64,000 nucleotides of DNA from Parcubacteria group bacterium (GTDB lineage: Bacteria; Patescibacteriota; Minisyncoccia; Moranbacterales; UBA2206). The stretch covers positions 4,939 to 68,938 of the forward strand of contig JBAYLE010000001.1 in NCBI GenBank assembly GCA_041664225.1, in the 5' to 3' direction. Below are positions 5,656 to 61,668 of the stretch, piece by piece. Below the pieces are notes generated by a model. That model did not search any database. It was given only the letters and a program-made list of their open reading frames with translations, and was not told the origin of the DNA. Numbering within the stretch: position 1 is the first letter of the stretch; each line of letters begins with the position of its first letter. The position numbers were made by a program, and so were the translations under genes.

Positions 5656-5657
5656 CT

Positions 5658-6935
5658 ATGAAAAAGACAGAACTTCTTGCTCCCGCTGGGAGCCCGGAAA
5701 AATTGAAATATGCGATTCAATACGAGGCGGACGCGGTTTATTGCGGCCTACCCGATTTTTCTATGCGCCGGCGGATTAACAGTTTCTCGGAAAAAACGCT
5801 GGCTGAGGCGGTAAAATTTGCGCATGCGAGAAAAAAGAAAATTTATGTGACGGTAAATACTTATCCGCATAATGATCAATTTACTTTGATTGCTAAACAT
5901 CTGAAATTTTTGGCAAAAATAAAACCGGACGCGATCATTATTTCAGATCCCGGCGTTTTGGAATTGGCGAAAAAAAATGCGCCGGGAATTCCGGTTCATC
6001 TTTCTACGCAGGCTAACGCCATTAATTGGCAGGCGGTGAAATTTTGGGCTGCTCAGGGAGTAGAGAGAGTTATCTTGGCGCGTGAAGTTACCTTAGCGGA
6101 AATAAAAGAAATTCATGAGAAAGTTCCGGAGGTGGAACTGGAGTGTTTTGTGCATGGCGCGATGTGTATGAGTTATTCCGGTCGCTGTATTTTGAGCGCT
6201 TGGATGACGGGGCGCAGTGCCAATTTGGGGGATTGCGCGCAGCCGTGCCGGTGGAAATATGGTCGCGTAACGCATAATGTGGAACGTGAAACGCTATTGA
6301 TGAGTATCGAAGATGAAAAGAAAAAATTCGAAATTGATTTGGAGGAGGACAAAAATGGAACCTATTTTTTCAACAGTCAGGATATGAATTTATTGGAGCA
6401 TTTGGACAAGCTGAAAAAAGCGGGAATAATTTCTTTCAAAATCGAAGGCAGAAATAAAAGCGTATATTATGTCGCCACGGTTTGCCGAGCCTATCGCAAA
6501 GTGTTGGACGCGTTGGCGAAAAAAGTTGTGGCCAAGAAACTTAAAAAAATTATTGAGGATCAACAAAAAGAATTAGGGAAGCTTATGCATCGAGGATATA
6601 CCAATGGTTTTTTGTTTGGGCATGATCCGAAACATGATTTTAAAAAATCGCACAAAAAGTGTGATTACGAATTTGTCGGCGAAGTAGTTGAAAGTTGGGG
6701 AAAAACCCTGACTGTCCAGGTTCATAATGCAATCAATCTGAAAGATAAAATAGAAGTTATAGATCCGAACAAAAATACACCAATCAAGATTAAAAAAATT
6801 TTTAATCAGGACAAAAAAGAAGTAAAATCCGCTCATGGTGGCCATGACCAGCTGTATTTTTTCAAAATAGACAAGGAAAAAATAAAACAGGGGGCACTGC
6901 TGCGTAGGGTTGTAAAAATGATAAAAACGAGTTAA
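5658..6935 (+). CDS. Peptidase U32 family protein (PrtC/TrhP/RlhA-like)
   Basis: N-terminus MKKTELLAPAGSPEKLKYAIQYEADAVYCGLPDFSMRRR is typical of U32. The Cys-rich segment CMSYSGRCILSAWMTGRSANLGDCAQPC is present. Confidence 0.75.
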   Translation: MKKTELLAPAGSPEKLKYAIQYEADAVYCGLPDFSMRRRINSFSEKTLAEAVKFAHARKKKIYVTVNTYPHNDQFTLIAKHLKFLAKIKPDAIIISDPGVLELAKKNAPGIPVHLSTQANAINWQAVKFWAAQGVERVILAREVTLAEIKEIHEKVPEVELECFVHGAMCMSYSGRCILSAWMTGRSANLGDCAQPCRWKYGRVTHNVERETLLMSIEDEKKKFEIDLEEDKNGTYFFNSQDMNLLEHLDKLKKAGIISFKIEGRNKSVYYVATVCRAYRKVLDALAKKVVAKKLKKIIEDQQKELGKLMHRGYTNGFLFGHDPKHDFKKSHKKCDYEFVGEVVESWGKTLTVQVHNAINLKDKIEVIDPNKNTPIKIKKIFNQDKKEVKSAHGGHDQLYFFKIDKEKIKQGALLRRVVKMIKTS

Positions 6936-6956
6936 AATTGAATAAAATACAATATT

Positions 6957-8357
6957 ATGGCTACAAAAGAACTAAATTCTATGGAAAAAATCGTCTCTCT
7001 TTGTAAAAGGCGGGGGTTTGTGTTCCCGTCCTCGGAAATTTATGGGGGACTCGCGGCGATTTATGATTATGGCCATTACGGGACACTGCTCAAAAACAAC
7101 ATTTGTGATGAGTGGTGGAAGCATATGGTGCAATATCGAGACGACGTAGTGGGACTCGACAGCGCGATCTTCATGCATCCAACTACCTGGAAGGCTTCCG
7201 GGCACATCGACAGTTTTGACGATCCACAGATTGATTGTAAAAAATGCAAAGCCCGGATGCGTGCTGATCATGTGCTGGAACTCTTTGGAATTAGCGCCGA
7301 CAAACAGCCGCTGGATTTTATTAATATTGAACTAAAAAAACTGAGAGAATTGGGAAAATTAAAATGTCAGAGTTGTGGCTCGGCAGATTTGACCGAAGCC
7401 AAAAGATTTTCTTTGATGGTAAAATCTAATCTGGGTTCCCCCACTGATGCGCTTTCCGAGGAACATGTAGTGTATTTGCGTCCGGAAACTTGCGGAGGAA
7501 TATATCTCGAATACAAAAACACGCTGGATTCCACGCGCGTGAAACTGCCGTTCGGCATTGCCCAAGTCGGAAAAGCTTTTCGCAATGAAATCATCGCCCG
7601 CCAGTTTATTTTTCGCACGCGTGAATTTGAACAGATGGAGATGCAATATTTTTTGCATCCCAAGGATATGAATGAGAAATATGAAATGTGGAAAGACACA
7701 CGCTGGAGATGGTATTTAGAATATGGAATCGGAGAAAAAGATATCCGTTGGTATGAACATGAAAAATTGGCGCATTACGCTTCGCAAGCTTATGATGTGG
7801 AATATAATTTCAAGTCGCTGGGCGGATTCAAAGAAGTGGAGGGCATTCACGCGCGCGGTGACTGGGATCTTTCGCAACACTCGAAATTTTCCGGAGTTGA
7901 TCTCTCGTATCTTGACGAAAAGACCGGGGAAAAATTTATTCCGCACATTATGGAAACTTCGGTGGGGCTCAATAGACTATTTTTTATGTTTATTGACAAG
8001 GCCTATACGGAAGAAAAAACTGGTGGAGAAATCAGGACCATGCTCAAGCTGGACAAACGGCTGGCGCCGATCAAAGTCGCCATTTTCCCGCTGTTGCGCA
8101 ACAAGCCGGAATTGGTGGCCAAGGCCAGAGAAATTTACGAAAGTCTCAAACCACAGTTTATGTGCGAATTTGATGACAATGGAAATGTCGGTAAAAGATA
8201 CAGAAGGCAGGACGAAATCGGGACGCCATATTGCGTGACAGTGGATTTTGACACCCTAGAAGACAGTGCCGTTACTGTGCGCGACCGGGATACGATGCAA
8301 CAGGAGAGGGTAAAAATTGAAGAATTAAAAAATTATTTTAGTGAAAAATTAAACTAA
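6957..8357 (+). CDS. glyS: Glycyl-tRNA synthetase, archaeal/eukaryote-type homodimeric form
   Basis: EIYGGLAAIYDYGHYG, class II motifs (FRNEIIARQFIFRTREFEQMEMQYF), and a C-terminal anticodon-binding domain. Confidence 0.85.
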   Translation: MATKELNSMEKIVSLCKRRGFVFPSSEIYGGLAAIYDYGHYGTLLKNNICDEWWKHMVQYRDDVVGLDSAIFMHPTTWKASGHIDSFDDPQIDCKKCKARMRADHVLELFGISADKQPLDFINIELKKLRELGKLKCQSCGSADLTEAKRFSLMVKSNLGSPTDALSEEHVVYLRPETCGGIYLEYKNTLDSTRVKLPFGIAQVGKAFRNEIIARQFIFRTREFEQMEMQYFLHPKDMNEKYEMWKDTRWRWYLEYGIGEKDIRWYEHEKLAHYASQAYDVEYNFKSLGGFKEVEGIHARGDWDLSQHSKFSGVDLSYLDEKTGEKFIPHIMETSVGLNRLFFMFIDKAYTEEKTGGEIRTMLKLDKRLAPIKVAIFPLLRNKPELVAKAREIYESLKPQFMCEFDDNGNVGKRYRRQDEIGTPYCVTVDFDTLEDSAVTVRDRDTMQQERVKIEELKNYFSEKLN

Positions 8358-8358
8358 A

Positions 8359-9159
8359 ATGGATATCTTCGAACAATTAAAAAACACAGATCCTTACGCC
8401 CAGGAGGGAAAGGATATGGCTGATGCGGCTGTCGCTGAAATTAGGGAAAGGATAAAGGACCAAATCTTGTTCCTTAAAGAAAATTCACAGGATCCCAATA
8501 TAAAGAATCATTTGAAGATGGTAAACAAAGAAAACTGGGATGCTCTGCTAGGCGGCCTTTCAAATCAGGACATCATCGACTTCAACGAGGTTATCTTAAA
8601 AAGAAATTGGAAGCAATATTTAGAGAGGAATAAGGAAGAAATGCTAACAAAATATTATCAAGAAAAATTTGAAAACAAAAGTGACAAACTTCTGGCCAAA
8701 GACGCAACGATGTCAAATCCCGCAGATGAATTTCGTTTCTCTTTTAGGGCTATGATAAAACATTATGCCAGAAACTGCGAGATTGATGAAGAAACGAAAA
8801 AAAGGGAAAAAGAAAGAGATGAATTAAAAAAGACTTTTCAGAAAAAGTTGGAAGATATAAGAGGCGATCGGCCGCACGTAGTGGCCGTGATTGAAGAGCT
8901 AGACATGGATATGTTGCGCAAAGCTGATTACGAGGTGATTATAAATCTGGACAAACAGCATTTTCAAGGCTATGAAGAAAAGTTAAAAAACTATTTCAGC
9001 ATGAAAGTTGGCAGCACGAGGGAAGCGCGCCCGGAGGATATAAAAGCAGAGATCATAAGGGAAGATCCTCGATTTAAGTATTACTGCGCCCTGAGAACGG
9101 CGCTTGGGATGAAGGGTCCGTGCACTCCAGAAATTTTTTTAAACAATCAAAGAATATGA
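8359..9159 (+). CDS. Hypothetical charged, helical protein
   Basis: 266-aa K/E-rich ORF with host-like codon usage. No recognisable motif. Confidence 0.4.
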   Translation: MDIFEQLKNTDPYAQEGKDMADAAVAEIRERIKDQILFLKENSQDPNIKNHLKMVNKENWDALLGGLSNQDIIDFNEVILKRNWKQYLERNKEEMLTKYYQEKFENKSDKLLAKDATMSNPADEFRFSFRAMIKHYARNCEIDEETKKREKERDELKKTFQKKLEDIRGDRPHVVAVIEELDMDMLRKADYEVIINLDKQHFQGYEEKLKNYFSMKVGSTREARPEDIKAEIIREDPRFKYYCALRTALGMKGPCTPEIFLNNQRI

Positions 9160-12965: not shown

Positions 12966-13436
12966 CTATTTTATAAAAAGTATAATTATTGCAATGAGAG
13001 AAATAATAATATCATTGGCGGCGTTGCGGAGGTTCCAGGCGCGTTCTGGTGCGTTGCGTGGATATTTATGGCACCACGAATGGAATGCGTAATATTTTTC
13101 CAAAAACGCAAAGCGATATTTCCAATAGATGAAAGTTATAAAATCCGGAAGGATAGAAAAAAAGACTCCGAGGAAAATATCTTTCATGACAAATGAGTTT
13201 GGCTTTCTGATTGCAAGATAAATAAGAATGACAATGATGCCGATGAAGAAATCCAAGGCGACTTTGTGCCAAGTATTTTTGAAAGCGACCTTGCTGTCAA
13301 AGCTTTCCACATATTCACCGTGGCGGAAAGTGTCCAAAACAAAATGCATGGCCAGGGAAAAGATGATTATGAGCCAAGGACTATGAATTTTTGCGCCGAT
13401 GGCGGCTCCAACAAGTTCGTGGGTTGCTAATATCAT
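12966..13436 (-). CDS. Membrane protein, possibly a membrane-bound metal-dependent hydrolase (DUF457/YdjM-like)
   Basis: N-terminal THELVGAAIG...HFVLD motif. Multiple His-bearing TM helices. Confidence 0.4.
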   Translation of the reverse strand: MILATHELVGAAIGAKIHSPWLIIIFSLAMHFVLDTFRHGEYVESFDSKVAFKNTWHKVALDFFIGIIVILIYLAIRKPNSFVMKDIFLGVFFSILPDFITFIYWKYRFAFLEKYYAFHSWCHKYPRNAPERAWNLRNAANDIIISLIAIIILFIK

Positions 13437-13479: not shown

Positions 13480-14151
13480 ATGGATATAGGTATATTATAC
13501 ATTGTAGCAACACCGATTGGCAATTTAGGCGATATCACTTTGCGGGCGGTAGAGACTCTTAAAAAGGTTGATTTGGTGGCGTGTGAGGACACGCGGGTGA
13601 CCAAAAAGCTCCTTGATCGTTATGAGATCAAAACCCGAGTTACGAGCTTTTTCCAGCACTCCAAAACGCCTAAAATAGCCAGTATTATTGGGGCTTTAAA
13701 AAGCGGGCAGAATGTGGCGCTGGTGACGGATGCCGGCACGCCGGGCATTTCCGACCCCGGGAACAAGTTAGTGGAGGCGGTAATTTTCAAAAATATTGCC
13801 GTGATTCCAATTCCGGGTGTTTCGGCGCTCACTGCGCTGATAAGTGTGGCCGGAATCGATATGCAAAAATTTGTCTTTCTTGGTTTTCCTCCGCACAAAA
13901 AAGGCCGGGAGACTTTTTTTAAAGAAGTTACATCTCTGAAATATCCGGTTGTCTATTATGAATCTCCGCACCGCGTGCTTAAAAATTTGGAACTTTTTAA
14001 AAGCCTCGGAGGCGACAAAAATATAATCCTCGGCCGGGAACTCACTAAAATGTTTGAAGAAACTGTGCGAGGTAATGTGGACGAGATTTTAAAATATTTT
14101 CAAGAAAATCCGGGTAAGGTTAAGGGTGAATTTACAATAATTGTCTATTGA
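13480..14151 (+). CDS. rsmI: 16S rRNA (cytidine1402-2'-O)-methyltransferase
   Basis: YIVATPIGNLGDITLRAVETLKKVDLVACEDTRVTKKLL is the tetrapyrrole-methylase fold typical of RsmI. Confidence 0.85.
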   Translation: MDIGILYIVATPIGNLGDITLRAVETLKKVDLVACEDTRVTKKLLDRYEIKTRVTSFFQHSKTPKIASIIGALKSGQNVALVTDAGTPGISDPGNKLVEAVIFKNIAVIPIPGVSALTALISVAGIDMQKFVFLGFPPHKKGRETFFKEVTSLKYPVVYYESPHRVLKNLELFKSLGGDKNIILGRELTKMFEETVRGNVDEILKYFQENPGKVKGEFTIIVY

Positions 14152-14152
14152 T

Positions 14153-14584
14153 ATGAAAAAAGAATTTGAAAAGTTTGTGATTAGCTTAGCAGCTATTATT
14201 ATCAGAAATAATAAATGTTTAATTTTAGAATATGCAAAATACTCAAAAATGTGGGGTCTGCCAGGAGGAAGAATTGATAAGGGAGAATTTGTAGCCGGAG
14301 AGTCTTTGAGGAGGGAATTAGAAGAAGAGCTTGGACTTTCTAATTTTAAAAATTTAGGCGTAGTTGATTATGATATTTCTTGGAATTCTGAAGATCATGC
14401 AAAATGCAATATAATTTTACTCATTGAAAATGATTCTGATGAAATTAAAATTAGTCCAGAGCATATTCAACTAAAATGGATTGGTGAAGATGAAATCAAC
14501 AACTATCAATTTCGGTGGGATAATATGGAAAGGGTTATAAAAAATGGTTTTAAATATCATAAATTATTAAATAATGAAAAATAA
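14153..14584 (+). CDS. Nudix hydrolase
   Basis: Nudix box GLPGGRIDKGEFVAGESLRRELEEELGL. The ORF-finder start at 14141 is TTG, whereas the ATG at 14153 sits 1 nt after the rsmI stop. The 3' end overlaps the metG start. Confidence 0.75.
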   Translation: MKKEFEKFVISLAAIIIRNNKCLILEYAKYSKMWGLPGGRIDKGEFVAGESLRRELEEELGLSNFKNLGVVDYDISWNSEDHAKCNIILLIENDSDEIKISPEHIQLKWIGEDEINNYQFRWDNMERVIKNGFKYHKLLNNEK

Positions 14585-24130: not shown

Positions 24131-24586
24131 ATGATAAATTTATTTCTTGAAACCATATCTGCGGTTGTAGAGAATCTAGAACCTATATTAGTTTTACTAC
24201 TGCCAGTGTTGGTTATTGCGCTTGTATTTTTTTCATTCATTTCTAATTATTTGATTAATAAAATTACAAAGAATATATACAAAAATAATTTTTTATTTGA
24301 TTATTTAGCATGTATCATTTTCCTTGCTGTACTCGTAATTTTTAATAGTATACTGATTATTGTCGCAACTGATGATAATTTAAAAATTTCTTCGGTAATT
24401 ATTATACCAATCGTTTCTGCAATTATTTATTTAATTTTTAAATATTATATTTTAGTAAAAATTGGCAAAAAGACATTTTTAGATATGGCGATTAGCGCAC
24501 TGTTTGATTTCATAGCCATAGCAGCTGGCATTTATATTATAGGATTAATTTTTGATGCAGGAATGTCAGCGGGTGGTTTTGCTTAA
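24131..24586 (+). CDS. Ile/Leu-rich 4-TM membrane protein inserted between atpD and atpC; GC far below that of its neighbours
   Basis: 151-aa ORF, locally about 28% GC versus about 42% in the flanks. No intergenic space to atpC. Confidence 0.5.
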   Translation: MINLFLETISAVVENLEPILVLLLPVLVIALVFFSFISNYLINKITKNIYKNNFLFDYLACIIFLAVLVIFNSILIIVATDDNLKISSVIIIPIVSAIIYLIFKYYILVKIGKKTFLDMAISALFDFIAIAAGIYIIGLIFDAGMSAGGFA

Positions 24587-27599: not shown

Positions 27600-30449
27600 A
27601 TGGAAAACTACGATCCGAAGCTTATTGAGCCAAAATGGCAGGAATTTTGGCTTAAAGAAGGCATTTATAAAAACTACGAGAAATCTAAGAAGTTCTATGC
27701 TCTGGATATGTTTCCGTATATTTCCGGTTCGGGTATTCATGTAGGGCATCCAAAAGGGTATATTGCGACCGATGTGGTGTCGAGGTTCAAGATGCTTCAA
27801 GGATACAGCGTGCTTCATCCGATGGGCTGGGACGCTTTTGGGCTGCCAGCAGAAAATTATGCCATTAAAAATAAGATCAATCCCAACATTTTTGTGAAGG
27901 AAAATATTATCAGGTTCAAAAAACAGCTGGAGATGTTTGGCTTCACTTACGATTGGGACAGGGAATTCAGCACAACTGATCCGAATTACTATAAATGGAC
28001 GCAATGGATATTTCTGAAATTATTCGAGAAAGGTTTGGCGTATGAGTCCAATGAGCCGGTTAACTGGTGTTCGAGTTGCAAAACTGTATTGGCCAATGAA
28101 GATTTGGAGAAAGGATTGTGCGAGCGCTGCGGCACGCAAGTGGTGCAGAAAAAAATGAGGCAATGGGTTCTTAAAATGACTGATTACGCCGATCGCCTGC
28201 TTTATGATCTGGATACGGAGGGTCTCGATTGGGAGGAACAAATTCTTGAGCAACAAAGAAATTGGATCGGAAGAAGCGAAGGAGCGGAAATAGAATTCCA
28301 AATTTCAAATTCAGAATTTAAAATTAAAGTTTATACAACCAGAGTCGATACTATTTTCGGCTGCACTTATTGCGTTATCGCGCCGGAACACGAAACAGTC
28401 CAAAAGCTGAAAAATAAAATAGAAAACTGGGATGAGGTTGAAAAATATTTAATCGAATCACAAAACAAAACAGAATTGGAAAGAATGGAATTGAAAGACA
28501 AGACGGGGGTCGAACTAAAGGGAATCAAGCTTATTAATCCATTCAACGGAGAATCAGTTCCATTGTTTGCTGCGGATTATGTTTTAGCGCACTATGGAAC
28601 CGGCGCGGTGATGGCTGTGCCGGCGCACGATGAAAGAGATTTTGAATTCGCGAAGAAATATAATTTACCGATTAAAAATGTTATCGGGCCATGTTTTTGT
28701 CAGCAAACTGAACCAGGCAAAATCAAAGAGAAAGAGCCATTTGAAGAGAGAGATGCTGTGCTAGCGATTGTTAAACATCAGGATAAAGATGAATATTTGG
28801 GGCTAAAATGGAAACAAGTGGATTGGAAAACTTTCATAACTGGTGGTCCAGAAGAAGGTCAAACTGCCGAAGAAGCAGCCAGGATGGAGGTTCTTGAGGA
28901 AACCGGATATAAGAACTTGAAATTGATCAAAGAATTGCCGATGGTGCATAGTAAATTTTATCATGTGCCGAAGAAATTAAATCGGCTTGCTCATTTTCGT
29001 GTTTTTTACTTTGAGTTGGAAAATGACGAGCATCAGGAAATTTCAGAAATTGATAAGAAAAGGCATGAAGTCGTTTGGGTGACGAAGGAAAAAGTGGAAA
29101 CTTTTTTAACGCCGGAATCACAAATATATACCTGGCAGACATTACTGGGAAAAGAAAAACCGTATGTTGACGATGGTGTCTTAGCAAATTCTGACAAATA
29201 TTCCAGCATGACCTCCGAGGAAGCACGTGAAAAAATGACCGAGTGGCTGGAAAAAGAAAAAATTGGCGAGAAAAAAATAAATTACAAAATGCGCGACTGG
29301 GTTTTTTCGCGCCAACGTTATTGGGGTGAGCCGATTCCGATCGTGCATTGCGAAAAATGCGGAGCGGTTGCGATTTCGGAAAAAGAATTGCCGTTAAAAT
29401 TGCCCGAAGTCGAAAATTATGAGCCGACCGGAACCGAAGAGGGTCCATTGGCCAACATAACTGAGTGGGTAAATACGACTTGCCCAAAATGCGGCGGACC
29501 GGGGAAGCGTGAAACAAACACGATGCCGCAATGGGCGGGATCCAGCTGGTATTATCTTCGCTATATTGATCCAAAAAATAATGAAGCCCTGGTTGAAAAA
29601 AATAAAGAAAAAGATTGGATGCCAGTGGATCTTTATGTCGGTGGTGCAGAACACGCCACTCGTCATTTGCTGTATGCCAGATTTTGGCACAAATTTCTGT
29701 ATGATATCAAAGTTGTTTCTACGAAGGAGCCCTTCAAAAAACTGGTTCACGTCGGACTGGTTGATGGAGAAGACGGCAGAAAAATGAGTAAGCGCTGGGG
29801 GAACGTAGTAAATCCTGATGATGTTATAAATGAATTTGGGGTTGATTCGTTGCGTCTTTATGAAATGTTTATGGGGCCTTTCAGTCAGAATATTGCCTGG
29901 AGCACGGATGGCGTAAAAGGAGTGAGAAGGTTTTTGGAAAAAGTTTGGAAGTTACAAAAAAAAGTTATTGATCAAGTTGTAGAAAATAAAAAACTTGAAT
30001 CACTGTTGCATAAAACTATCAAGAAAGTCACGGAGGATATAAAAAATTTTCGTTTCAATACTGCCATTAGCGCGATGATGATTCTGGTAAATGAATTAGA
30101 AAAAGGGAAAAATATTTTAAGCACCAATTACAAATTGCTAATCACTATTTTGAGTCCTTTTGCTCCACACATTGCTGAAGAACTTTGGGAAAAGTTGGGG
30201 CATAAAGATAGCATATTTTTGCAATCTTGGCCAGAGTATGATCCGGAACTAATCAGAGATGAAAAAATAACGTTGGTCTTGCAAATAAATGGCAAAGTGC
30301 GTGATTCAATCGAAGTGGATGCTGGGATTTCAGAAAAGGAGGCAAAAGAGCTGGCGATGCAAAGCGAAAAAATAAAAACTTGGGTTTCAGGCAAAGAAAT
30401 CAAAAAAGTTATTTTTGTCAAAGGCAAACTTATAAATATTGTCATCTAA
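27600..30449 (+). CDS. leuS: Leucyl-tRNA synthetase carrying a Nudix-like domain insertion after the CP1 editing domain
   Basis: HVGHPKGY, editing-domain motifs (GTGAVMAVPAHDERDFEFAKKYNLPI), and KMSKRWGN. The roughly 160-aa insert contains AVLAIV...GGPEEGQTAEEAARMEVLEETGY. Confidence 0.9.
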   Translation: MENYDPKLIEPKWQEFWLKEGIYKNYEKSKKFYALDMFPYISGSGIHVGHPKGYIATDVVSRFKMLQGYSVLHPMGWDAFGLPAENYAIKNKINPNIFVKENIIRFKKQLEMFGFTYDWDREFSTTDPNYYKWTQWIFLKLFEKGLAYESNEPVNWCSSCKTVLANEDLEKGLCERCGTQVVQKKMRQWVLKMTDYADRLLYDLDTEGLDWEEQILEQQRNWIGRSEGAEIEFQISNSEFKIKVYTTRVDTIFGCTYCVIAPEHETVQKLKNKIENWDEVEKYLIESQNKTELERMELKDKTGVELKGIKLINPFNGESVPLFAADYVLAHYGTGAVMAVPAHDERDFEFAKKYNLPIKNVIGPCFCQQTEPGKIKEKEPFEERDAVLAIVKHQDKDEYLGLKWKQVDWKTFITGGPEEGQTAEEAARMEVLEETGYKNLKLIKELPMVHSKFYHVPKKLNRLAHFRVFYFELENDEHQEISEIDKKRHEVVWVTKEKVETFLTPESQIYTWQTLLGKEKPYVDDGVLANSDKYSSMTSEEAREKMTEWLEKEKIGEKKINYKMRDWVFSRQRYWGEPIPIVHCEKCGAVAISEKELPLKLPEVENYEPTGTEEGPLANITEWVNTTCPKCGGPGKRETNTMPQWAGSSWYYLRYIDPKNNEALVEKNKEKDWMPVDLYVGGAEHATRHLLYARFWHKFLYDIKVVSTKEPFKKLVHVGLVDGEDGRKMSKRWGNVVNPDDVINEFGVDSLRLYEMFMGPFSQNIAWSTDGVKGVRRFLEKVWKLQKKVIDQVVENKKLESLLHKTIKKVTEDIKNFRFNTAISAMMILVNELEKGKNILSTNYKLLITILSPFAPHIAEELWEKLGHKDSIFLQSWPEYDPELIRDEKITLVLQINGKVRDSIEVDAGISEKEAKELAMQSEKIKTWVSGKEIKKVIFVKGKLINIVI
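28692..29175 (+). other. Nudix-like domain inserted within leuS
   Basis: Sits between the conserved IKNVIG and KINYKMRDWVFSRQRYWG blocks, which are about 55 aa apart in E. coli LeuRS. Confidence 0.6.
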
Positions 30450-33408: not shown

Positions 33409-34056
33409 ATGAAAATATTGGTTGATTTCGATGATGTTCTTTTGAATACGAACAGATTTCGCAAAAATTATAAAAAAATCTATGCCGCATACGGGATTGA
33501 CCCAGAGGTTTTTGAACAGTATTATAAAAAGTCGGTAACATACGAAAAAAGCATCACAGTGTATGATCCGGAAAAGCATTTAAAAGAAATAAAGCGAGGC
33601 GAAAATATAAAAATTTCTAAACTCAGAAAATCAATTTATAATTTTGCTGAGAATTCAAAGAAATATGTTTTTAAGGATGTTAAAAAATTTCTAGCTAAAT
33701 TTAAAAAAGACGATATAATCATTATCACTCATTCGAAAAGCAAATTTCAAAAAGTTAAGTTAAAAAACAGCGGTTTGAAAAAACTTGTAAAAAAAATCAT
33801 CCAGACCGGTAAGCTGAAGGCATATACTGTGAAAAAATTAGCAACACAGAAAATCATTAAAAATGGAGAAGCAGCCTATTTTTTAGATGACAGGGTGGAT
33901 CAGATAAATGAAGTTAAAAAAATTAATCCTAGCGTTATAACTGTGTTGATCAGAAGAAGGGAGGGCAGGTTCCAAGATAAAAAAACAAAATTTTGTGATT
34001 TTGAGGCAAAAAACTTAAAGGAGGCTTATCAAATAATAAAACAAAAATGCCAGTAA
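33409..34056 (+). CDS. HAD-superfamily hydrolase-like protein
   Basis: DxD motif in MKILVDFDDVLLNT, with a downstream K and D. Confidence 0.45.
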   Translation: MKILVDFDDVLLNTNRFRKNYKKIYAAYGIDPEVFEQYYKKSVTYEKSITVYDPEKHLKEIKRGENIKISKLRKSIYNFAENSKKYVFKDVKKFLAKFKKDDIIIITHSKSKFQKVKLKNSGLKKLVKKIIQTGKLKAYTVKKLATQKIIKNGEAAYFLDDRVDQINEVKKINPSVITVLIRRREGRFQDKKTKFCDFEAKNLKEAYQIIKQKCQ

Positions 34057-41534: not shown

Positions 41535-43379
41535 ATGAAAAAAATATTAGATTCAGTCAATTTTCCCCAGGATATAAGAAATATTTCAGAGGACAAGTTG
41601 CCGCAACTTTGCTCGGAGGTGCGGGATTTTTTAATTGATAGTATTTCACGAACCGGCGGTCATTTTGGATCAAATCTGGGCGTGGTTGAGCTAACGGTCG
41701 CAATTCACCGGGTTTTTGATACCCCCAGAGACTTGCTGATTTGGGATGTAGGGCACCAAGCTTATCCGCACAAAATTTTGACTGGTCGCAAAGATCGGAT
41801 GGATACTATCAGAAAAAAAGGAGGACTGGCGCCTTTCCCCAAAAGAGAAGAGAGCGAATATGATCCTTTGAGCGTTGGTCATTCGGGCACCTCGATCAGT
41901 GCGGCCACAGGGATGGCGATTGCCAATAGAAATAAAAAAAATGCGCCACAGGTAGTGGCCGTGATTGGGGACGGGGCTCTCACGGGCGGAATGGCTTTTG
42001 AAGCGCTTGATCATGCGGGAGATGTCGGAGCGAATATCCTTGTGATTCTTAATGATAACAAGATGTCGATTTCGCCTAATGTGGGCAGTATGGGTAAGTA
42101 TCTAACGCGTCTGATTTCATCGCCAACGTATGTGCAATTGCGCGAGAGGGGAAGGGAAATACTCAGCAGTGTTCCGACCATCAAGAAACTTATACGCCGG
42201 GCCGAAGTCCAAACGAAAGGGATCATCACACCCGGAACGCTTTTTGAAGAATTAGGTTTTGATTATTATGGACCGATTGATGGGCATGATGTCAAGACAC
42301 TAGTGGAAGTTCTCACAAATCTCAAAAAAATCAAAGGTCCGAGATTTTTACACGTTATAACTACGAAAGGAAAGGGGTATGTGCCGGCGGAAGTCGATGA
42401 ATTTTCTTTGCATGCAGTAAAACCTTTTGACCCGGTTACAGGCAAAAAAAATGAAAACCAGAAAAAGGGCATAACTTTTACCAATGTTTTTTCTGATTGG
42501 ATATGCGATGCGGCAGAAAAAGATGTTCGGTTGCATGCTATTACACCGGCAATGTGTGACGGATCGGGGCTAGTTGAATTTAGCAAAAAATTTCCCAAGC
42601 GTTATCATGACGTTGGCATTGCCGAACAACACGCGGTAACTTTTGCGGCGGGTCTGGCTTGCGAGAGGAAAAAACCGGTGGTGGCAATTTATTCCACGTT
42701 TTTACAGCGGGCTTATGACCAACTGATCCATGATGTGGCGCTGCAAAATTTGAGCGTGCTTTTTGCCATTGATCGGGCCGGAGTGGTGGGGCAAGACGGC
42801 GCGACGCACGCCGGAAACTTGGATCTTTCGTTTATGCGGGCGGTTCCTAATTTAGTCATCATGGCGCCGGCAAATGAGAATGAATGTTATTCAATGTTAG
42901 AGGCGGGATACAAATATGATGGTCCAGTGGCGGTGAGATATCCAAGAGGCGGCAGCGGTGAAGAATATGACAAAAATAAATGCGAACCGATAGAAATTGG
43001 GAAAGCCAAGATAATCAGAGAGGGAGAAAAGGTTGCGATTTTGGCTTTTGGAACGATGGTGGGCAAAACAAAAAAAGCGGCTGAAAAATTAAACGCCACT
43101 TTGGTGAATATGCGATTTGTAAAACCACTGGACGAAGACCTTTTACGAGAGCTTGCGAAATCGCACGAATATTTTGTGACGGTTGAAGATAATGTTGTCG
43201 CCGGCGGTGCGGGCAGTGCGGTCAATGAATTTGTTTTCAGTGCCGGGCTAAAAGTGGCCGTGAAAAATATCGGACTTCCGGATAAATTTCTGGAACATGG
43301 GACGCGTGAAGAAATCCTGTCCGAATTTGGGCTGGACGAAGATAGTATCCTAAAGATAGTTTCTGATTTTGCTAAATAA
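41535..43379 (+). CDS. dxs: 1-deoxy-D-xylulose-5-phosphate synthase
   Basis: GGHFGSNLGVVELTVAIHRVFD, a TPP-binding GDG, and a transketolase-like C-terminal domain. Confidence 0.8.
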   Translation: MKKILDSVNFPQDIRNISEDKLPQLCSEVRDFLIDSISRTGGHFGSNLGVVELTVAIHRVFDTPRDLLIWDVGHQAYPHKILTGRKDRMDTIRKKGGLAPFPKREESEYDPLSVGHSGTSISAATGMAIANRNKKNAPQVVAVIGDGALTGGMAFEALDHAGDVGANILVILNDNKMSISPNVGSMGKYLTRLISSPTYVQLRERGREILSSVPTIKKLIRRAEVQTKGIITPGTLFEELGFDYYGPIDGHDVKTLVEVLTNLKKIKGPRFLHVITTKGKGYVPAEVDEFSLHAVKPFDPVTGKKNENQKKGITFTNVFSDWICDAAEKDVRLHAITPAMCDGSGLVEFSKKFPKRYHDVGIAEQHAVTFAAGLACERKKPVVAIYSTFLQRAYDQLIHDVALQNLSVLFAIDRAGVVGQDGATHAGNLDLSFMRAVPNLVIMAPANENECYSMLEAGYKYDGPVAVRYPRGGSGEEYDKNKCEPIEIGKAKIIREGEKVAILAFGTMVGKTKKAAEKLNATLVNMRFVKPLDEDLLRELAKSHEYFVTVEDNVVAGGAGSAVNEFVFSAGLKVAVKNIGLPDKFLEHGTREEILSEFGLDEDSILKIVSDFAK

Positions 43380-44976
43380 GACTCTTTACCATATAAGTAT
43401 TCTTCAATTTATATCCAAGTTTGCGGTAGTAATTTCGAACACCCACGCCCGATATTACTACAATTTTGTTTAGGCCGAATTCTTTTTTGGCGATGCGCTC
43501 CGCTTCTTGCATCAGTTTTTTGCCGAGGCCGATATGCTGAGGTGATTTTTTATCCTGTTTATTTATCTCTGTCATTTTTCCGTAAGTGTGCACCTCGCGA
43601 ACAAGGGCGACACTTGGAAGCTCGGCTTCCAAGCTGGGAATGCGCAGACGCAAAAGGGCAAATAATTTTTTCTTGTCCGGCGAAACATACTGCAAGAATA
43701 TTTCCTGGCCATCTGAAGCGGGATAATCAATCCGGTCTAAAATTATTTTTTCATTTATTTTATAATCCGCTCCGACTTCCCGGCAGCGGATACAAGGGCA
43801 GTTGGATTTTCCGGCGATCATTTGGCGGAGATTAGAAAGTGTCGGTCCAGCTACTATGGAAGTGGCGGGCACGTCGCGTACCAGTCGTGAAATTCTCATG
43901 TAGGGCGGAATAATTTTGTTTTTCACTTGCAAAATAAATTTTTCAAATTGCTTGTCGGTCAGCGGTTTATAAGATCCTTTTTTCCAAAAATTATAGAGCG
44001 CGCTGTTTCTGACCACGACTGTCGGATAAATTTTTAGCATATCCGGCTGAAAGTCTGGATTGGAAAATAATTCCCGAAACATTTTGTGGTCTTTTTTTAA
44101 ATTTGATCCCGGAAGGCCGGGCATAATGTGATAATTAATTTTAAATCCAGCGTCTTTCAGTAATTTCGTGGCCTCAATAGTTTTTTGGACGCCGTGCCCG
44201 CGCTTGTTGATTTTCAACACATCATCAAAAATACTTTGCACCCCAAGTTCTACACGGGTCGCGCCCAATTTTCTGAAATTCAAAATTTCTTCTTCATCGA
44301 TATAATCCGGTCTAGTTTCCAGTGTCAAACCGACAATTCGATGTCTGGCCTTTTCGTTTATTTTTTGTTCACTTAATAAATAATTAACTTTGAACTTTGC
44401 ATTTTTAACTTTTAACTTCCTGGGGTAGTCATTACACGCGCGAAAACATTCAGTGATGAATTTTAGCTGATAAGATTTTGGTAAATAGGAAAATGTTCCG
44501 CCCATAACAATCAGCTCGATTTTGTCTGTTTTGTGGCCATTGAGTTCAAGCGAGCGCAGGCGATTCCAAGCTTGAAGATACGGATTGAATTTGGAAGCGA
44601 TGGCTCGCATTACTGCTGGTTCATTGGATAGATAGCTCTTAGGCATGTCTTTTTCAGTGGGGCAATAGAGGCACTTTCCTGGACAAGGATAGGCCTTGGT
44701 CAGCACGGCGACAATAGCGACGCCGGATTGGGTGCGGATTTTACGACTTTGGAGCACTTCCTCAAACTTGATATTCCGCTCTATTTTCCCAGCCTTGATC
44801 ATTTTTTCATAATGCTCTCGTAAATCAGCGTTGGTCGGCAGGGGAAGCTGTAGCACGCCTGAAATTTCTTTCTTTAAACTTAAAAAAACTTCCGAGTTTT
44901 TTGGGACTTTATTAGTTGCTAGTTTTATGAAATTATCGTAGGCTATGTTCATGGAAAAAGAAACTATTGAAAACAT
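43372..44976 (-). CDS. elp3: Elp3-family radical-SAM/GNAT protein (tRNA U34 carboxymethyluridine synthase homolog)
   Basis: Radical SAM Cys cluster (CPGKCLYCP) and C-terminal GNAT domain (QHIGLGKKLMQEAERIAKKEFGL). The start may instead be the ATG at 44952. Confidence 0.75.
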   Translation of the reverse strand: MFSIVSFSMNIAYDNFIKLATNKVPKNSEVFLSLKKEISGVLQLPLPTNADLREHYEKMIKAGKIERNIKFEEVLQSRKIRTQSGVAIVAVLTKAYPCPGKCLYCPTEKDMPKSYLSNEPAVMRAIASKFNPYLQAWNRLRSLELNGHKTDKIELIVMGGTFSYLPKSYQLKFITECFRACNDYPRKLKVKNAKFKVNYLLSEQKINEKARHRIVGLTLETRPDYIDEEEILNFRKLGATRVELGVQSIFDDVLKINKRGHGVQKTIEATKLLKDAGFKINYHIMPGLPGSNLKKDHKMFRELFSNPDFQPDMLKIYPTVVVRNSALYNFWKKGSYKPLTDKQFEKFILQVKNKIIPPYMRISRLVRDVPATSIVAGPTLSNLRQMIAGKSNCPCIRCREVGADYKINEKIILDRIDYPASDGQEIFLQYVSPDKKKLFALLRLRIPSLEAELPSVALVREVHTYGKMTEINKQDKKSPQHIGLGKKLMQEAERIAKKEFGLNKIVVISGVGVRNYYRKLGYKLKNTYMVKSLI

Positions 44977-58627: not shown

Positions 58628-58700
58628 GACTTGTAACGCTTTTAATAAAAAATCCCGGCTTTAAGGGTCGGGGTTTTTATTTTCATGGTATAATTATTTT

Positions 58701-59351
58701 ATGAAAAAGATTCTTCCAAAAAAAGAATATGAGATTTTAAAAAAAATAAATACGCCGGTCAAAATTCAGAATTTTTTGGACACGATGCCGATGAATTTTG
58801 AAGAAGAGGGTGACACCTGTTTTTCTCCCATGACAGTTTTAGAAAAAAATTCCTGCCATTGTATTGAGGGTGCCATATTAGCCGCCCTGGCGCTTCGTGT
58901 TCATGGTTATCCACCGCTACTTTTGGATTTAACGGCCGATAAGACTGACTATGATCACGTGGTTACCGTATTTAAAATCGATGGTAAGTGGGGCGCCCTA
59001 TCCAAAACCAACCATTCAGTTTTGCGTTACCGTGAACCAGTCTATGGTTCTGTCCGGGAACTGGTCATGAGCTATTTTCATGATTACGTGAATATTAATA
59101 CGAGCAAAAAAACTTTGCGCAGTTTCGCGCGGCCGGTTAATCTGAAGCGTTTTGATTCTTTGGGTTGGATGACTACCAAAGAAGAAATTTTTTATATCCC
59201 GGCACATCTGGCGGATATTAAACATCATAAAATTTTGAATCGAAAACAAATTCTCAATCTGCGTCCGGCTGATGCGATTGAAATCAAAGTGGGCAGCATT
59301 CAGGAATGGCAAGATTCGCAGGGCAATGCGCCTAAATATCCTTCCTGCTGA
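58701..59351 (+). CDS. Transglutaminase-like / papain-like cysteine peptidase-fold protein
   Basis: NSCHCIEGAILAALALRVHGYP (Cys nucleophile context as in the TGase core) followed by DYDHVVTVFKIDGKWG (His). TATAAT lies 7 nt upstream of the ATG. Confidence 0.45.
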   Translation: MKKILPKKEYEILKKINTPVKIQNFLDTMPMNFEEEGDTCFSPMTVLEKNSCHCIEGAILAALALRVHGYPPLLLDLTADKTDYDHVVTVFKIDGKWGALSKTNHSVLRYREPVYGSVRELVMSYFHDYVNINTSKKTLRSFARPVNLKRFDSLGWMTTKEEIFYIPAHLADIKHHKILNRKQILNLRPADAIEIKVGSIQEWQDSQGNAPKYPSC

Positions 59352-59380
59352 AATAATTTTTTGTTTGATAAATTTCTTAA

Positions 59381-59421
59381 AAAGATAAAAAATAAATCCC
59401 CGCTGTGCCTTGCGGGGATTT
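59381..59421 (-). terminator. Rho-independent terminator for the 407-aa minus-strand gene (aaatccccgc/gcggggattt stem, T-run on the minus strand)
   Basis: Forward strand reads aaaagataaaaaataaatccccgctgtgccttgcggggattt. Confidence 0.65.
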
Positions 59422-59426
59422 GGTGG

Positions 59427-60650
59427 TCACAGTATGACCGTTTTCGCGCCGAGAGGAAGAGTTCCAGGAAGGAGCTTTTCCTTGTGCACAATTGATGGTT
59501 TTACCCGGACGCATTTTGGAGCTTCCAATATGCGTCCTTGGCCGGGTCTTTTGCGAAAAGTTCCGCTGCGGAAGTGGAAACACTTCTCGCCACCGCCACC
59601 TTTTCGGCTATGGCGGATCATTTCTGCCAGCTGTCTGTCTCTCCTGTCCAGATAATTGGTGAGATCGAGGACAAAAAGTTGTGAACTATGGGTAATTGCT
59701 TTTTTATTATTGATTTTGTCTCCAATGATTGACTTCCATTTTTCCGGTCTTGAGTAATGAAGTGATGGAAGAGTGTTGAGATATTGGCAGAAGCTGATTG
59801 CCAAATGTCTGGCTTTTTCAAGGATGGAATATCTCATAAATTTATCCTCGGTGTCTGTGGAACTAGCTGCCAAATCTATCCCTCGTTCAGCACCGAAGAC
59901 TTCCAAGCGTTGATGGAAATCTTTGAAACTTTCCGTAAGAGGCGTATCAACCGGAGTGCTGCTTTGATCCGATTTTTCAAAAACCGTAAAGAATGAGTCC
60001 ATATATGCTATTCCCATGGTGTTAATCTTATGAAACAATTTTTCCATATATGGATATCCACGCTTTCTGATCATCTTTGGAATCACTCCCATGTCTTCCT
60101 TGGAAAGCATCCGGTATTCATCTAACTTTTTCGAAAATGCCGAGATACTTATAAAATCATTTCCTTCCAGATCCGGAATACAATCGCTGATATTACTAAC
60201 CAGTAGAAAATCAAATTCATTTCCTTTTTCATCAGTAAGTGGCTCTCCCAATTCGATGCCGAACGAGCGCAATGGCCAGTCGATATCTTCCCAATCTGTC
60301 CCCTTGAGCGATGTCGCGCTCAGAATCGTCTGGAGGTCGGCGGGGACATGGAAGACTCTTCTGGAATGTCTGGTCCAGGCGAAGAGATCCGGAGGCAATG
60401 ATCCCAGATGCAATAATTCTGACCAAGTGCCGATCGAGCCGGAAAAACGATCTTGATCAAAAGGTCCATTGAGGCTTTGCATAAGATGGTCTCGAAACTC
60501 TGGTGCGTGAAGCAAGGGGCCCTCAATGGCGCGAGGAATCTTATTCTTGAATTGTGGAAAAGCTTCCCAATAGGTTCTGAGAATAAAACAAAAATCTTCC
60601 CAAAGCCTTAACGCTTGCTCTAGACGAAGAACATGTTTGCCTTGTGGCAT
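59427..60650 (-). CDS. Hypothetical 407-aa protein, GC-richer than its surroundings; no recognisable motif
   Basis: Long ORF with protein-like composition. About 45% GC versus about 40% in the flanks. CTG/CCG codons are used, unlike the host genes. Confidence 0.5.
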   Translation of the reverse strand: MPQGKHVLRLEQALRLWEDFCFILRTYWEAFPQFKNKIPRAIEGPLLHAPEFRDHLMQSLNGPFDQDRFSGSIGTWSELLHLGSLPPDLFAWTRHSRRVFHVPADLQTILSATSLKGTDWEDIDWPLRSFGIELGEPLTDEKGNEFDFLLVSNISDCIPDLEGNDFISISAFSKKLDEYRMLSKEDMGVIPKMIRKRGYPYMEKLFHKINTMGIAYMDSFFTVFEKSDQSSTPVDTPLTESFKDFHQRLEVFGAERGIDLAASSTDTEDKFMRYSILEKARHLAISFCQYLNTLPSLHYSRPEKWKSIIGDKINNKKAITHSSQLFVLDLTNYLDRRDRQLAEMIRHSRKGGGGEKCFHFRSGTFRKRPGQGRILEAPKCVRVKPSIVHKEKLLPGTLPLGAKTVIL

Positions 60651-60821
60651 AAGTTATCCTTTCCTGCGGCTGTATTTTTAAAGAAAAACAACTGATGAAA
60701 GAGTATAACTCCAATTTGGTAATTTGTCAATATCCATCAAAAATACTTGCATCTTTTGTAAGATTTTGCTAGAAATATGATAGTACAAAAAAGAATAATT
60801 TTTTGGAAAGGGGGGTGTTTT

Positions 60822-61196
60822 ATGTCAGAAGCCATCACATTCAACGCCAAAAACATTAGAGCACAGGATTTAGGTGAGTTGCTTAGCGCTTCAATGATGA
60901 TGTTGACGGGATTAGCCTGGAGAACAACTGTTGTTACGGATGAGCTGGTGGCCGAGATAGATCGCATGAGAAACTCAGTTGTACGCAAAATGAATCCGCG
61001 GATCTGGGAAAAATATCCCGGCGTCTGGTTCACCGCCAAAGTGACGACTGCCGAAGTGGATGCGCAAGAGATCATTTTTATTATGCTGGATGATGATTTG
61101 TCATCATCGGCAGCGAACAGATCTTTCTCAATGATGGAAACGATGGAACAACCCGAAGAAGATCCTTTTTATGTCAGTATCGTTTCCTTGAATTGA
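60822..61196 (+). CDS. Hypothetical 125-aa protein (start preceded by AAAGGGGGGTG)
   Basis: ORF with a strong SD, divergent from the 407-aa gene. Confidence 0.45.
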   Translation: MSEAITFNAKNIRAQDLGELLSASMMMLTGLAWRTTVVTDELVAEIDRMRNSVVRKMNPRIWEKYPGVWFTAKVTTAEVDAQEIIFIMLDDDLSSSAANRSFSMMETMEQPEEDPFYVSIVSLN

Positions 61197-61213
61197 GGGA
61201 GTATGCTGATGAG

Positions 61214-61254
61214 CTAGCCGGGCTAGTTTATAACCCGGCTAGTTTTTTTATTTT
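61214..61254 (+). terminator. Rho-independent terminator (ctagccggg/cccggctag stem plus T7)
   Basis: ctagccgggctagtttataacccggctagttttttt. Confidence 0.65.
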
Positions 61255-61277
61255 CTGATTCGGGTAGAGACGGGCGA

Positions 61278-61306
61278 TTGACAGAGTCTTTAAAATGAAT
61301 TAAAAT
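61278..61306 (+). promoter_or_regulatory. Sigma70 promoter TTGACA-17-TAAAAT for the 92-aa ORF
   Basis: ttgacagagtctttaaaatgaattaaaat. Confidence 0.55.
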
Positions 61307-61338
61307 TTATTCATAACATCAAAGATAAGCATATTTTT

Positions 61339-61617
61339 ATGTTTGATAAAAAACTCAAAGAGGCGCTGGAGCTTTTGGGCGGGAAAGCGATTTTGAATGA
61401 CGAGCAACAGTATTATGTCGTGATGACTTTAAAAGAATTTAAGAAAATGAAACAGGATGGCGTTGAGGGCTTGACAAAGCAGGAATTGGTTGATAAGATT
61501 AACAACGATATCGCCATTTGGAAAGTTTCTCAGGAGGATGAAGAAATGGCCATAAAGATGGAAGAATTGGAAGAGAGCGAGCCGGAAGAAATCCATTACG
61601 AAAAACCGGTGGCTTGA
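61339..61617 (+). CDS. Hypothetical acidic 92-aa protein
   Basis: ORF with its own promoter. E/D-rich C-terminus. Confidence 0.4.
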   Translation: MFDKKLKEALELLGGKAILNDEQQYYVVMTLKEFKKMKQDGVEGLTKQELVDKINNDIAIWKVSQEDEEMAIKMEELEESEPEEIHYEKPVA

Positions 61618-61639: not shown

Positions 61640-61668
61640 TTGCCAAGATTTGGAATACATAGTACAAT
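61640..61668 (+). promoter_or_regulatory. Sigma70 promoter TTGCCA-17-TACAAT for tuf
   Basis: ttgccaagatttggaatacatagtacaat. Confidence 0.55.

Follow-up and report, generated by a model that had tools for sequence, protein, structure and literature searches.

The 64,000-nucleotide stretch considered here (the window) belongs to contig JBAYLE010000001.1 of a Parcubacteria group bacterium, a metagenome-assembled genome (MAG) from the candidate phyla radiation (CPR), and carries between fusA and tuf a minus-strand gene for a protein of 407 amino acids (aa) that is recorded at NCBI only as hypothetical protein WCX17_00300. The gene order is rpsL, rpsG, fusA, a 216-aa gene, the 407-aa gene on the opposite strand, a 124-aa gene, a 92-aa gene, tuf, rpsJ, rplC and onwards, and the remaining window is ordinary CPR chromosome encoding leucyl-tRNA synthetase, NrdD, DXS, adenylate kinase and others. 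As set out below, the 407-aa protein is very probably a member of the AcrVA2-like (PF26125)/FinQ superfamily.

The gene possesses control signals of its own (Table 1). On its own strand it is followed by a hairpin rich in guanine and cytosine (GC) with a 10-bp stem (59421-59394) and then by ATTTTTTATC; the terminator folds at -27.1 kcal/mol, with z = -5.5 relative to shuffled sequences, none of 200 of which was equally stable. Upstream, the divergent intergenic gap measures 171 bp to the 124-aa gene as called in the public annotation, or 126 bp to the longest start of that open reading frame (ORF; 139 aa), and both a promoter-like site and a ribosome-binding site lie inside it. The identical protein is present on five contigs of the assembly collection, its sequence occurring in NCBI, JGI, Logan and ENA alike, and the three loci displayed for it represent three separate samples, one from JGI (3300037810; contig Ga0376277_0000759) and two from Logan (SRR6484324 and SRR18595301), with the same neighbours. 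Recurrence of the same protein in the same context in independent assemblies shows that the ORF did not arise by misassembly. The first-pass annotation of this DNA, which had described a minus-strand ORF with its own terminator and a divergent control region of about 170 bp, was right in both respects, and right also in regarding this as a real, independently transcribed, non-housekeeping gene deserving remote-homology and structural work; the peptide strings that it quoted are present in the translation.

Table 1. Features of the AcrVA2/FinQ-like gene and its surroundings, in window coordinates (AF2, AlphaFold2; NTD, MID and CTD, N-terminal, middle and C-terminal domains).
Feature	Position	Strand	Basis or content
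AcrVA2/FinQ-like protein, coding sequence, 407 aa + stop, complete	59427..60650	minus	ATG-start ORF from the ORF list
Intrinsic terminator of the 407-aa gene: 10-bp stem, 8-nt loop, T-run	59384..59421	minus	Hairpin search and folding
Candidate sigma-70-like promoter, TTGACA-17-TATACT, 11/12 matches	60702..60730	minus	Consensus match only
Shine-Dalgarno-like GGAAAGGA (AGGA), 6 nt 5' of the ATG	60657..60664	minus	Read off the sequence
All-helical NTD, residues 1-95, clade-specific RLEQAL..WED.C motif; last helix bears invariant W92	60366..60650	minus	AF2 model
Alpha/beta MID, residues 96-350, homologous to AcrVA2 MID	59601..60365	minus	Profile-profile alignment
Hypervariable, indel-rich insert in the MID, residues 154-275	59826..60191	minus	Lowest conservation, lowest pLDDT
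Basic four-stranded CTD, residues 351-407	59430..59600	minus	AF2 strands 359-361, 363-367, 379-383, 386-388
Putative effector motif H359-F-R361-S-G-T364-F-R366, aligned with AcrVA2 H286-I-R288-R-G-H291-W-H	59553..59576	minus	Alignments
Four unassigned genes breaking the usually contiguous fusA-tuf pair	58701-61617		216-aa, AcrVA2-like, 124/139-aa and 92-aa acidic ORFs
fusA terminator-like hairpin, 14 pairs	58648-58678	plus	
tuf promoter-like site, TTGCCA-17-TACAAT	61640-61668	plus	
Low-GC NUDIX hydrolase, GC 0.28	14141-14584	plus	
Low-GC protein without Pfam match, GC 0.26	24131-24586	plus	
Low-GC HAD-like hydrolase, GC 0.30	33409-34056	plus	

Scans of the Pfam, NCBIfam, PHROGs and PADLOC libraries with the 407-aa protein and its three neighbours produced only sub-threshold noise, in keeping with the earlier statement that the protein bears no recognisable domain. 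A phmmer search, run exhaustively over 1.84 billion cluster representatives, returned 502 relatives at E<=1e-3 and 350 at E<=1e-10, nearly all of them full-length at 380-410 aa, to which a word-indexed profile search of the family added only two sequences. Judged by sequence similarity, the protein belongs to a clade of ~390-aa proteins that forms no fewer than 500 clusters when grouped at 50% identity. Five full-length homologues (P0003, P0004, P0005, P0146 and P0153), sharing 28-35% identity with the window protein, carry a precomputed match to PF26125, 'AcrVA2-like'. A local Pfam scan of P0002-P0005 found nothing, though the precomputed PF26125 matches of P0003 and P0004 stand at E<=1e-5, and the local copy of the library is apparently without PF26125.

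The relationship to AcrVA2 was tested by profile comparison. Against all PDB chain sequences, a profile of 134 sequences (the 407-aa protein and 133 homologues, an alignment that also supplies the clade conservation counts given below) has a sole match, AcrVA2 (7ci1_A), which is weak (E 0.4) and falls exactly on the C-terminal motif, PHIRRGHW being paired with aHfRrGHw. Alignment of the family by hhalign with the single AcrVA2 sequence, a query identical to 7ci1_A over 322 residues, gave E 3.1e-5, and alignment with a profile of the AcrVA2 clade, for which 70 relatives were gathered and 48 aligned, gave a probability of 92.2% and E 5.9e-7 over 248 columns. The profile alignment spans residues 88-391 of the 407-aa protein and 75-318 of AcrVA2, with an identity between the two proteins of about 9-17% in the aligned region, and pairs W92 with W79, D105 with D89, H359 with H286, R361 with R288 and T364 with H291, together with the LCLYL helix and LLWLC. 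The AcrVA2 positions concerned are of known importance, as replacement of H286, R288 or H291 by Ala leads to loss of mRNA down-regulation (diminished in the case of H291A) with Cas12a binding kept, and W79A and D89A each cause a partial loss of function (bioRxiv 10.1101/2022.11.29.518452). In co-precipitation, the H286A mutant of AcrVA2 stayed stably associated with its target. Of the five residues, four (W92, D105, H359 and R361) are kept in the 407-aa protein. The remote-homology and structural check that the first-pass annotation had proposed thereby provided an AcrVA2/FinQ-like identity which that annotation had not reached.

Within the clade, W92 is invariant (134/134), the position of D105 is occupied by D or E in 118 of the 134 sequences, and H359 and R361 are each found in 131. 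Position 364 is less uniform, with H in 95 sequences, Y in 21, F in 9 and T in 8. Residues 359-407 form the best-conserved segment of the protein (2.51 bits per column), in which H359, R361, R366, G370 and P399 are each conserved at >=90%; this C-terminal tail is in frame throughout in a five-sequence alignment and gapless against the 133 homologues. Its entropy (3.69 bits, compared with a mean of 3.91) is slightly low, and the last 62 residues have a net charge of +12. The suspicion that the last ~60 residues are of low complexity, and perhaps frameshifted or degenerate, is thus not borne out, since this segment is the best conserved, bears the functional HxR motif of the family and is in frame with its homologues in an ORF that is identical in independent assemblies. 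At the opposite end of the protein, the clade-specific motif comprises conserved R9, L10, E11, L14, W17, E18 and D19, of which L14, W17 and E18 are conserved at >=90%, and suggests either a constant partner or a structural role for this region.

An AlphaFold2 model built from the 134-sequence alignment (predicted local distance difference test, pLDDT, 82.4; predicted template modelling score, pTM, 0.82) depicts a helical NTD of five helices (residues 8-30, 32-36, 45-57, 66-69 and 73-95), an alpha/beta MID and a CTD of four short strands. The order of elements is that of the AlphaFold2 model of AcrVA2, and the model also agrees with the published plan of AcrVA2, in which a helical NTD and an alpha/beta MID are joined by a loosely packed four-stranded CTD (PMC10846135). 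Conserved features of the MID include S96-R97-R98, D105 (the equivalent of AcrVA2 D89), P126-F127, F130, D147 and Y290. The insert at residues 154-275 displays 0.5-0.9 bits per column, 11-35% gaps and pLDDT values of 50-73, and is mostly gapped against AcrVA2 in the profile alignment; because it is indel-rich and poorly conserved, it appears from the sequences to be the best candidate for target specificity. Significant Foldseek matches of the model in BFVD are full-length phage proteins (K7XS91, A0A8S5RIP2, A0A8S5SH18, A0A223LH45 and A0A384ZW45), found with a probability of 1.00 and E values of 3e-6 to 4e-3 at TM-scores of only 0.34-0.43. Four of these five (all except K7XS91) also rank in the first eight for the AcrVA2 model, with E values from 1e-12 down to 5e-16. 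Phage proteins of this kind, ~320-420 aa in length and including those of Erwinia jumbo phage RisingSun (A0A223LH45), Dickeya phage JA13 (A0A384ZW45) and a Siphoviridae sp. (A0A8S5SH18), match the window model over the full fold, but are viral, give much stronger matches to the AcrVA2 model and are closer to AcrVA2 than to the clade of the window protein.

AcrVA2 is a prophage-encoded anti-CRISPR of Moraxella bovoculi (7CI1/7CI2; PF26125), which causes a translation-dependent loss of cas12a mRNA that is independent of promoter and codon sequence (bioRxiv 10.1101/2022.11.29.518452), and it has been described as the first known prokaryotic protein that reads a nascent polypeptide and destroys the mRNA specifying it. 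Its MID and CTD are homologous to those of the 407-aa protein, and the likeness extends to the three-domain plan and order of elements, a basic four-stranded CTD, the equivalents of W79, D89, H286 and R288, and shared fold neighbours among phage proteins. The differences are also considerable: AcrVA2 comprises 322 aa rather than 407, and the window protein has an unrelated NTD marked by a distinct RLEQAL..WED motif, an extra hypervariable insert of roughly 100 residues and a Thr at the H291 site. AcrVA2 is encoded on a prophage beside acrVA1, whereas the window gene resides in a chromosomal cluster of ribosomal genes in a CPR bacterium with no Cas12a in view. FinQ, a homologue of AcrVA2, is encoded by plasmids as a fertility inhibitor and lowers the mRNA of the F tra operon (bioRxiv 10.1101/2022.11.29.518452). 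It resembles the window protein in its C-terminal HxR and divergent N-terminus, the kinship following from the placement by Marino et al. (bioRxiv 10.1101/2022.11.29.518452), and it demonstrates that members of the superfamily can act on targets other than Cas12a and lower the mRNA level of specific genes, but it is borne by IncI/F-like plasmids and serves in plasmid-plasmid conflict, unlike the chromosomal window gene. About 1,800 orthologues are known from diverse mobile elements, mostly in the absence of Cas12a and with diverging N-termini (bioRxiv 10.1101/2022.11.29.518452).

By analogy with AcrVA2 and FinQ, the 407-aa protein would recognise a specific polypeptide, probably as a nascent chain on the ribosome, by means of the helical NTD together with the hypervariable segment of the MID. 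The basic, HxR-bearing CTD would then trigger loss of the mRNA encoding that polypeptide, with the outcome that a single target gene would be silenced at the level of translation or mRNA. A plausible target would be a gene of a phage or mobile element, or else a host gene, and probably not Cas12a, the choice of which as target seems most improbable. That the protein performs translation-coupled, polypeptide-specific mRNA silencing of the AcrVA2 type is, by this analogy, about an even proposition. The explanation preferred overall, somewhat favoured by the evidence as a whole, is that the gene is an intact and divergent member of the superfamily, standing alone in the chromosome between fusA and tuf, with an AcrVA2/FinQ-like role.

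Several observations weigh against this explanation. Neither the 407-aa protein nor P0002, its closest homologue (53% identity), has a precomputed PF26125 match, and a Foldseek search of the PDB with the model did not return 7CI1 at E<=10. A profile comparison restricted to the NTD detected no similarity to AcrVA2 (hhalign probability 0.2%), which agrees with the N-terminal divergence of orthologues described by Marino et al. The equivalent of H291, an invariant His in the AcrVA2 clade, is T364 in the window protein; this point is tempered by the occurrence of Y, F or T at the site in 38 of the 134 clade members, on account of which the second His does not seem, from the alignment, to be obligatory in the clade. 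The mRNA-degrading step of AcrVA2 itself is unknown, and is still so described in a 2026 review (PMC13131331; bioRxiv 10.1101/2022.11.29.518452), such that a mechanism for the 407-aa protein is carried over by homology only. Among 113 flanking ORFs at 13 loci of the family there is no recurrent partner, and most belong to housekeeping families. Finally, the clade is found in chromosomes among housekeeping genes, whereas AcrVA2 and FinQ are found on mobile elements, and in this solitary chromosomal setting lies the chief contrast to both. No match at E<=1 was obtained by tblastn of the 407-aa protein against the INPHARED phages or the 72,556 plasmids of PLSDB, and no true relative was found in IMG/VR with peptide patterns and the back-translated HFRRGHWRR motif, where the sole locus recovered (L018) was rejected as a spurious 118-aa ORF in a contig of 57% GC. 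As CPR mobile elements are poorly sampled, absence from these collections is weak evidence.

Among other explanations, the one that comes closest is a domesticated or degenerate member of the superfamily that still binds a partner but, having lost the equivalent of H291, no longer brings about mRNA decay and serves as a stoichiometric binder, a regulator or in some other role. T364 replaces precisely a His whose Ala mutant lowered AcrVA2 activity yet kept binding, the closest homologue (P0002) keeps that His, and the setting is chromosomal; the entire CTD is nonetheless intact, including H359, R361, R366, G370 and P399, 28% of the clade naturally carry Y, F or T at position 364, and the control signals of the gene (promoter-like site, ribosome-binding site, terminator) are all retained, which together leave such a loss of function unlikely, though worth keeping in mind. 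That the gene is instead a bona fide anti-CRISPR that silences Cas12a from within a cryptic mobile element draws on the same kinship with AcrVA2, the shared HxR effector motif included, but is very unlikely. The 64-kb window has no Cas12a-sized ORF, CRISPR array, tRNA or paralogue of the gene, the gene is embedded in the ribosomal cluster (rpsL-rpsG-fusA ... tuf-rpsJ), its NTD is unrelated to that of AcrVA2 where the NTD and variable insert are the presumed site of target recognition, most orthologues occur without Cas12a (bioRxiv 10.1101/2022.11.29.518452), and the clade was not found in the phage, plasmid and IMG/VR collections at the sensitivity of the searches made. Equally hard to credit is a PD-(D/E)xK nuclease or a pol-beta-type nucleotidyltransferase, of which the first-pass annotation had noticed loose motifs. 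D147, in the sequence EFDFLLVS, is conserved in 116 of the 134 sequences, conservation extends to the acidic E18, D19 and D122, and some RNA-degrading activity would suit the phenotype of the family. In the library scans, however, no nuclease or nucleotidyltransferase family of Pfam, NCBIfam or PADLOC was matched at E<=1, Foldseek against the PDB gave none with E<0.9, and the crystal structure of AcrVA2 is reportedly unlike known enzymes (bioRxiv 10.1101/2022.11.29.518452). Nor did the suggested inspection of catalytic residues lend support, given that the family does not conserve the 'GS' of FSGSIG (at residues 68-72 its consensus reads RFxxx) and D147 is without an accompanying (D/E)xK. A pseudogene or assembly artefact with a frameshifted 3' end, to which a GGGG run and the basic, slightly low-entropy tail might be taken to point, has next to no probability in the face of a tail that is gapless against 133 homologues and the most conserved segment of the protein, and of the same ORF in independent assemblies.

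A further proposal concerns the origin of the gene and not its function, namely that it was recently imported and that the fusA-tuf gap is an integration hotspot. In its favour, the 407-aa gene is among the few minus-strand genes of the window, fusA and tuf are interrupted by four genes without family assignment, the GC content is a little high and codon usage a little unusual, and an imperfect 32-nt direct repeat flanks the pair of 407-aa and 124-aa genes. The composition nevertheless falls inside the native range. The GC content of the gene is 0.444 compared with a window mean of 0.410, a value equalled or exceeded by ten other ORFs, including fusA (0.467) and tuf (0.452), and in a leave-one-out test of synonymous-codon log-likelihood over 54 genes it lies 1.38 standard deviations under the mean, ranking sixth of the 54. 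Per 1000 codons, CTG (17.2 versus 17.9 in the other genes), CCG (9.8 versus 17.2) and GGC (22.1 versus 22.3) are not enriched, and only AAA (41.8 versus 72.1) and TTA (7.4 versus 14.3) are depleted. The description of the gene as compositionally foreign and rich in CTG, CCG and GGC codons consequently fails, with a GC content of native magnitude and a codon z of -1.4; of the contrast drawn with the AAA and TTA preference of neighbouring genes, the depletion of these two codons is real and the enrichment of the other three is absent. Moreover, the contig that carries P0002 encodes at its end an EF-G C-terminus 85% identical to that of the window fusA, which places the gene beside fusA in a related genome, implies that the two were linked before the lineages split and argues against recent import. 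No tRNA is present in the window, none of the neighbours was recognised as an integrase or transposase, and the flanking repeat is 78% identical, AT-rich and probably a product of chance. Recent import is, on these grounds, quite unlikely. The copies of the repeat lie at 59353-59384 and 61331-61362, the second overlapping the start of the 92-aa ORF. The true compositional outliers of the window are three plus-strand genes with GC contents of 0.26-0.30 (Table 1) rather than the 407-aa gene.

The surroundings of the gene and of its relatives offer little by way of a functional partner. A search with a five-sequence alignment located related loci in five genome and four metagenome places, with relatives in MAGs of Staskawiczbacteria, Saccharibacteria and Uhrbacteria, and in a gammaproteobacterial MAG (binchicken_co269_189) two paralogues, 45% identical, occupy separate contigs (L009, 7893-9179; L012, 7980-9170), which hints at a diversification of specificities within one genome. 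Neighbours of the relatives include dnaA-dnaN with PBP1/ruvC, a sigma factor with MFS and NUDIX proteins, HD/RecQ and a patatin. An all-against-all BLAST of the flanking ORFs revealed no common neighbour except fusA at locus L003, where a DUF2207 membrane protein occupies the slot next to fusA instead, and the 216-aa and 139-aa neighbours in the window have no counterparts beside other homologues. The 216-aa neighbour itself has only sub-threshold, transglutaminase/vasohibin-like matches (E 0.02-0.05). The fusA-tuf gap looks like a hotspot for variable genes; as fusA has a terminator-like hairpin and tuf a promoter-like site of their own (Table 1), the str-operon genes are probably separate transcription units around the inserted genes. 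Association with defence islands was considered and rejected, only one of the 13 loci (L001) having a PADLOC candidate neighbour, a 903-aa helicase at 4635-7346 on the minus strand that matches PDC-S53 over its whole length (1295 bits, E = 0) and is divergent from P0005 at 8001-9143. Two further matches among the relatives' neighbours were likewise set aside: that to 'DpdF' is an ordinary RecQ, and that to 'DRT' is most likely a DnaG-type primase, as judged from the model name RTasDnaG-like.

The superfamily and its wide, mostly Cas12a-free distribution have already been described, and no new kind of system is revealed here. What is new is the assignment of a Parcubacteria 'hypothetical protein', and with it a large metagenomic clade, to the AcrVA2-like/FinQ superfamily. 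The clade is useful for dissecting the mechanism on account of its size, its distinct NTD, the tolerated loss of H291 and the non-mobile context of its sampled members, and the retention of the W, D and HxR residues in proteins that pair a conserved NTD with a hypervariable insert places constraints on which parts serve as effector and which in specificity. The clade also represents a set of natural variants for the engineering of polypeptide-directed gene silencing. A bolder idea, speculative and held to be improbable, is that the clade as a whole represents host-domesticated, chromosomally inherited nascent-peptide recognition of the AcrVA2 type, which silences incoming phage or plasmid genes or regulates a host gene; if true, it would constitute a translation-coupled, protein-sequence-directed layer of immunity or regulation in CPR and other bacteria.

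Two additional features of the window are of separate interest. The strand bias is extreme: greedy selection of ORFs of >=80 aa gives 62, of which 57 lie on the plus strand. Of the five on the minus strand, three reach 150 aa, namely the 407-aa gene, a 156-aa ORF at 12966-13436 and a radical-SAM/GNAT (Elp3-like) gene at 43372-44976. The 949-aa leucyl-tRNA synthetase, encoded at 27600-30449 on the plus strand, contains a NUDIX domain (Pfam E 2.9e-11, residues 406-503) apparently inserted after the editing domain, an unusual fusion.

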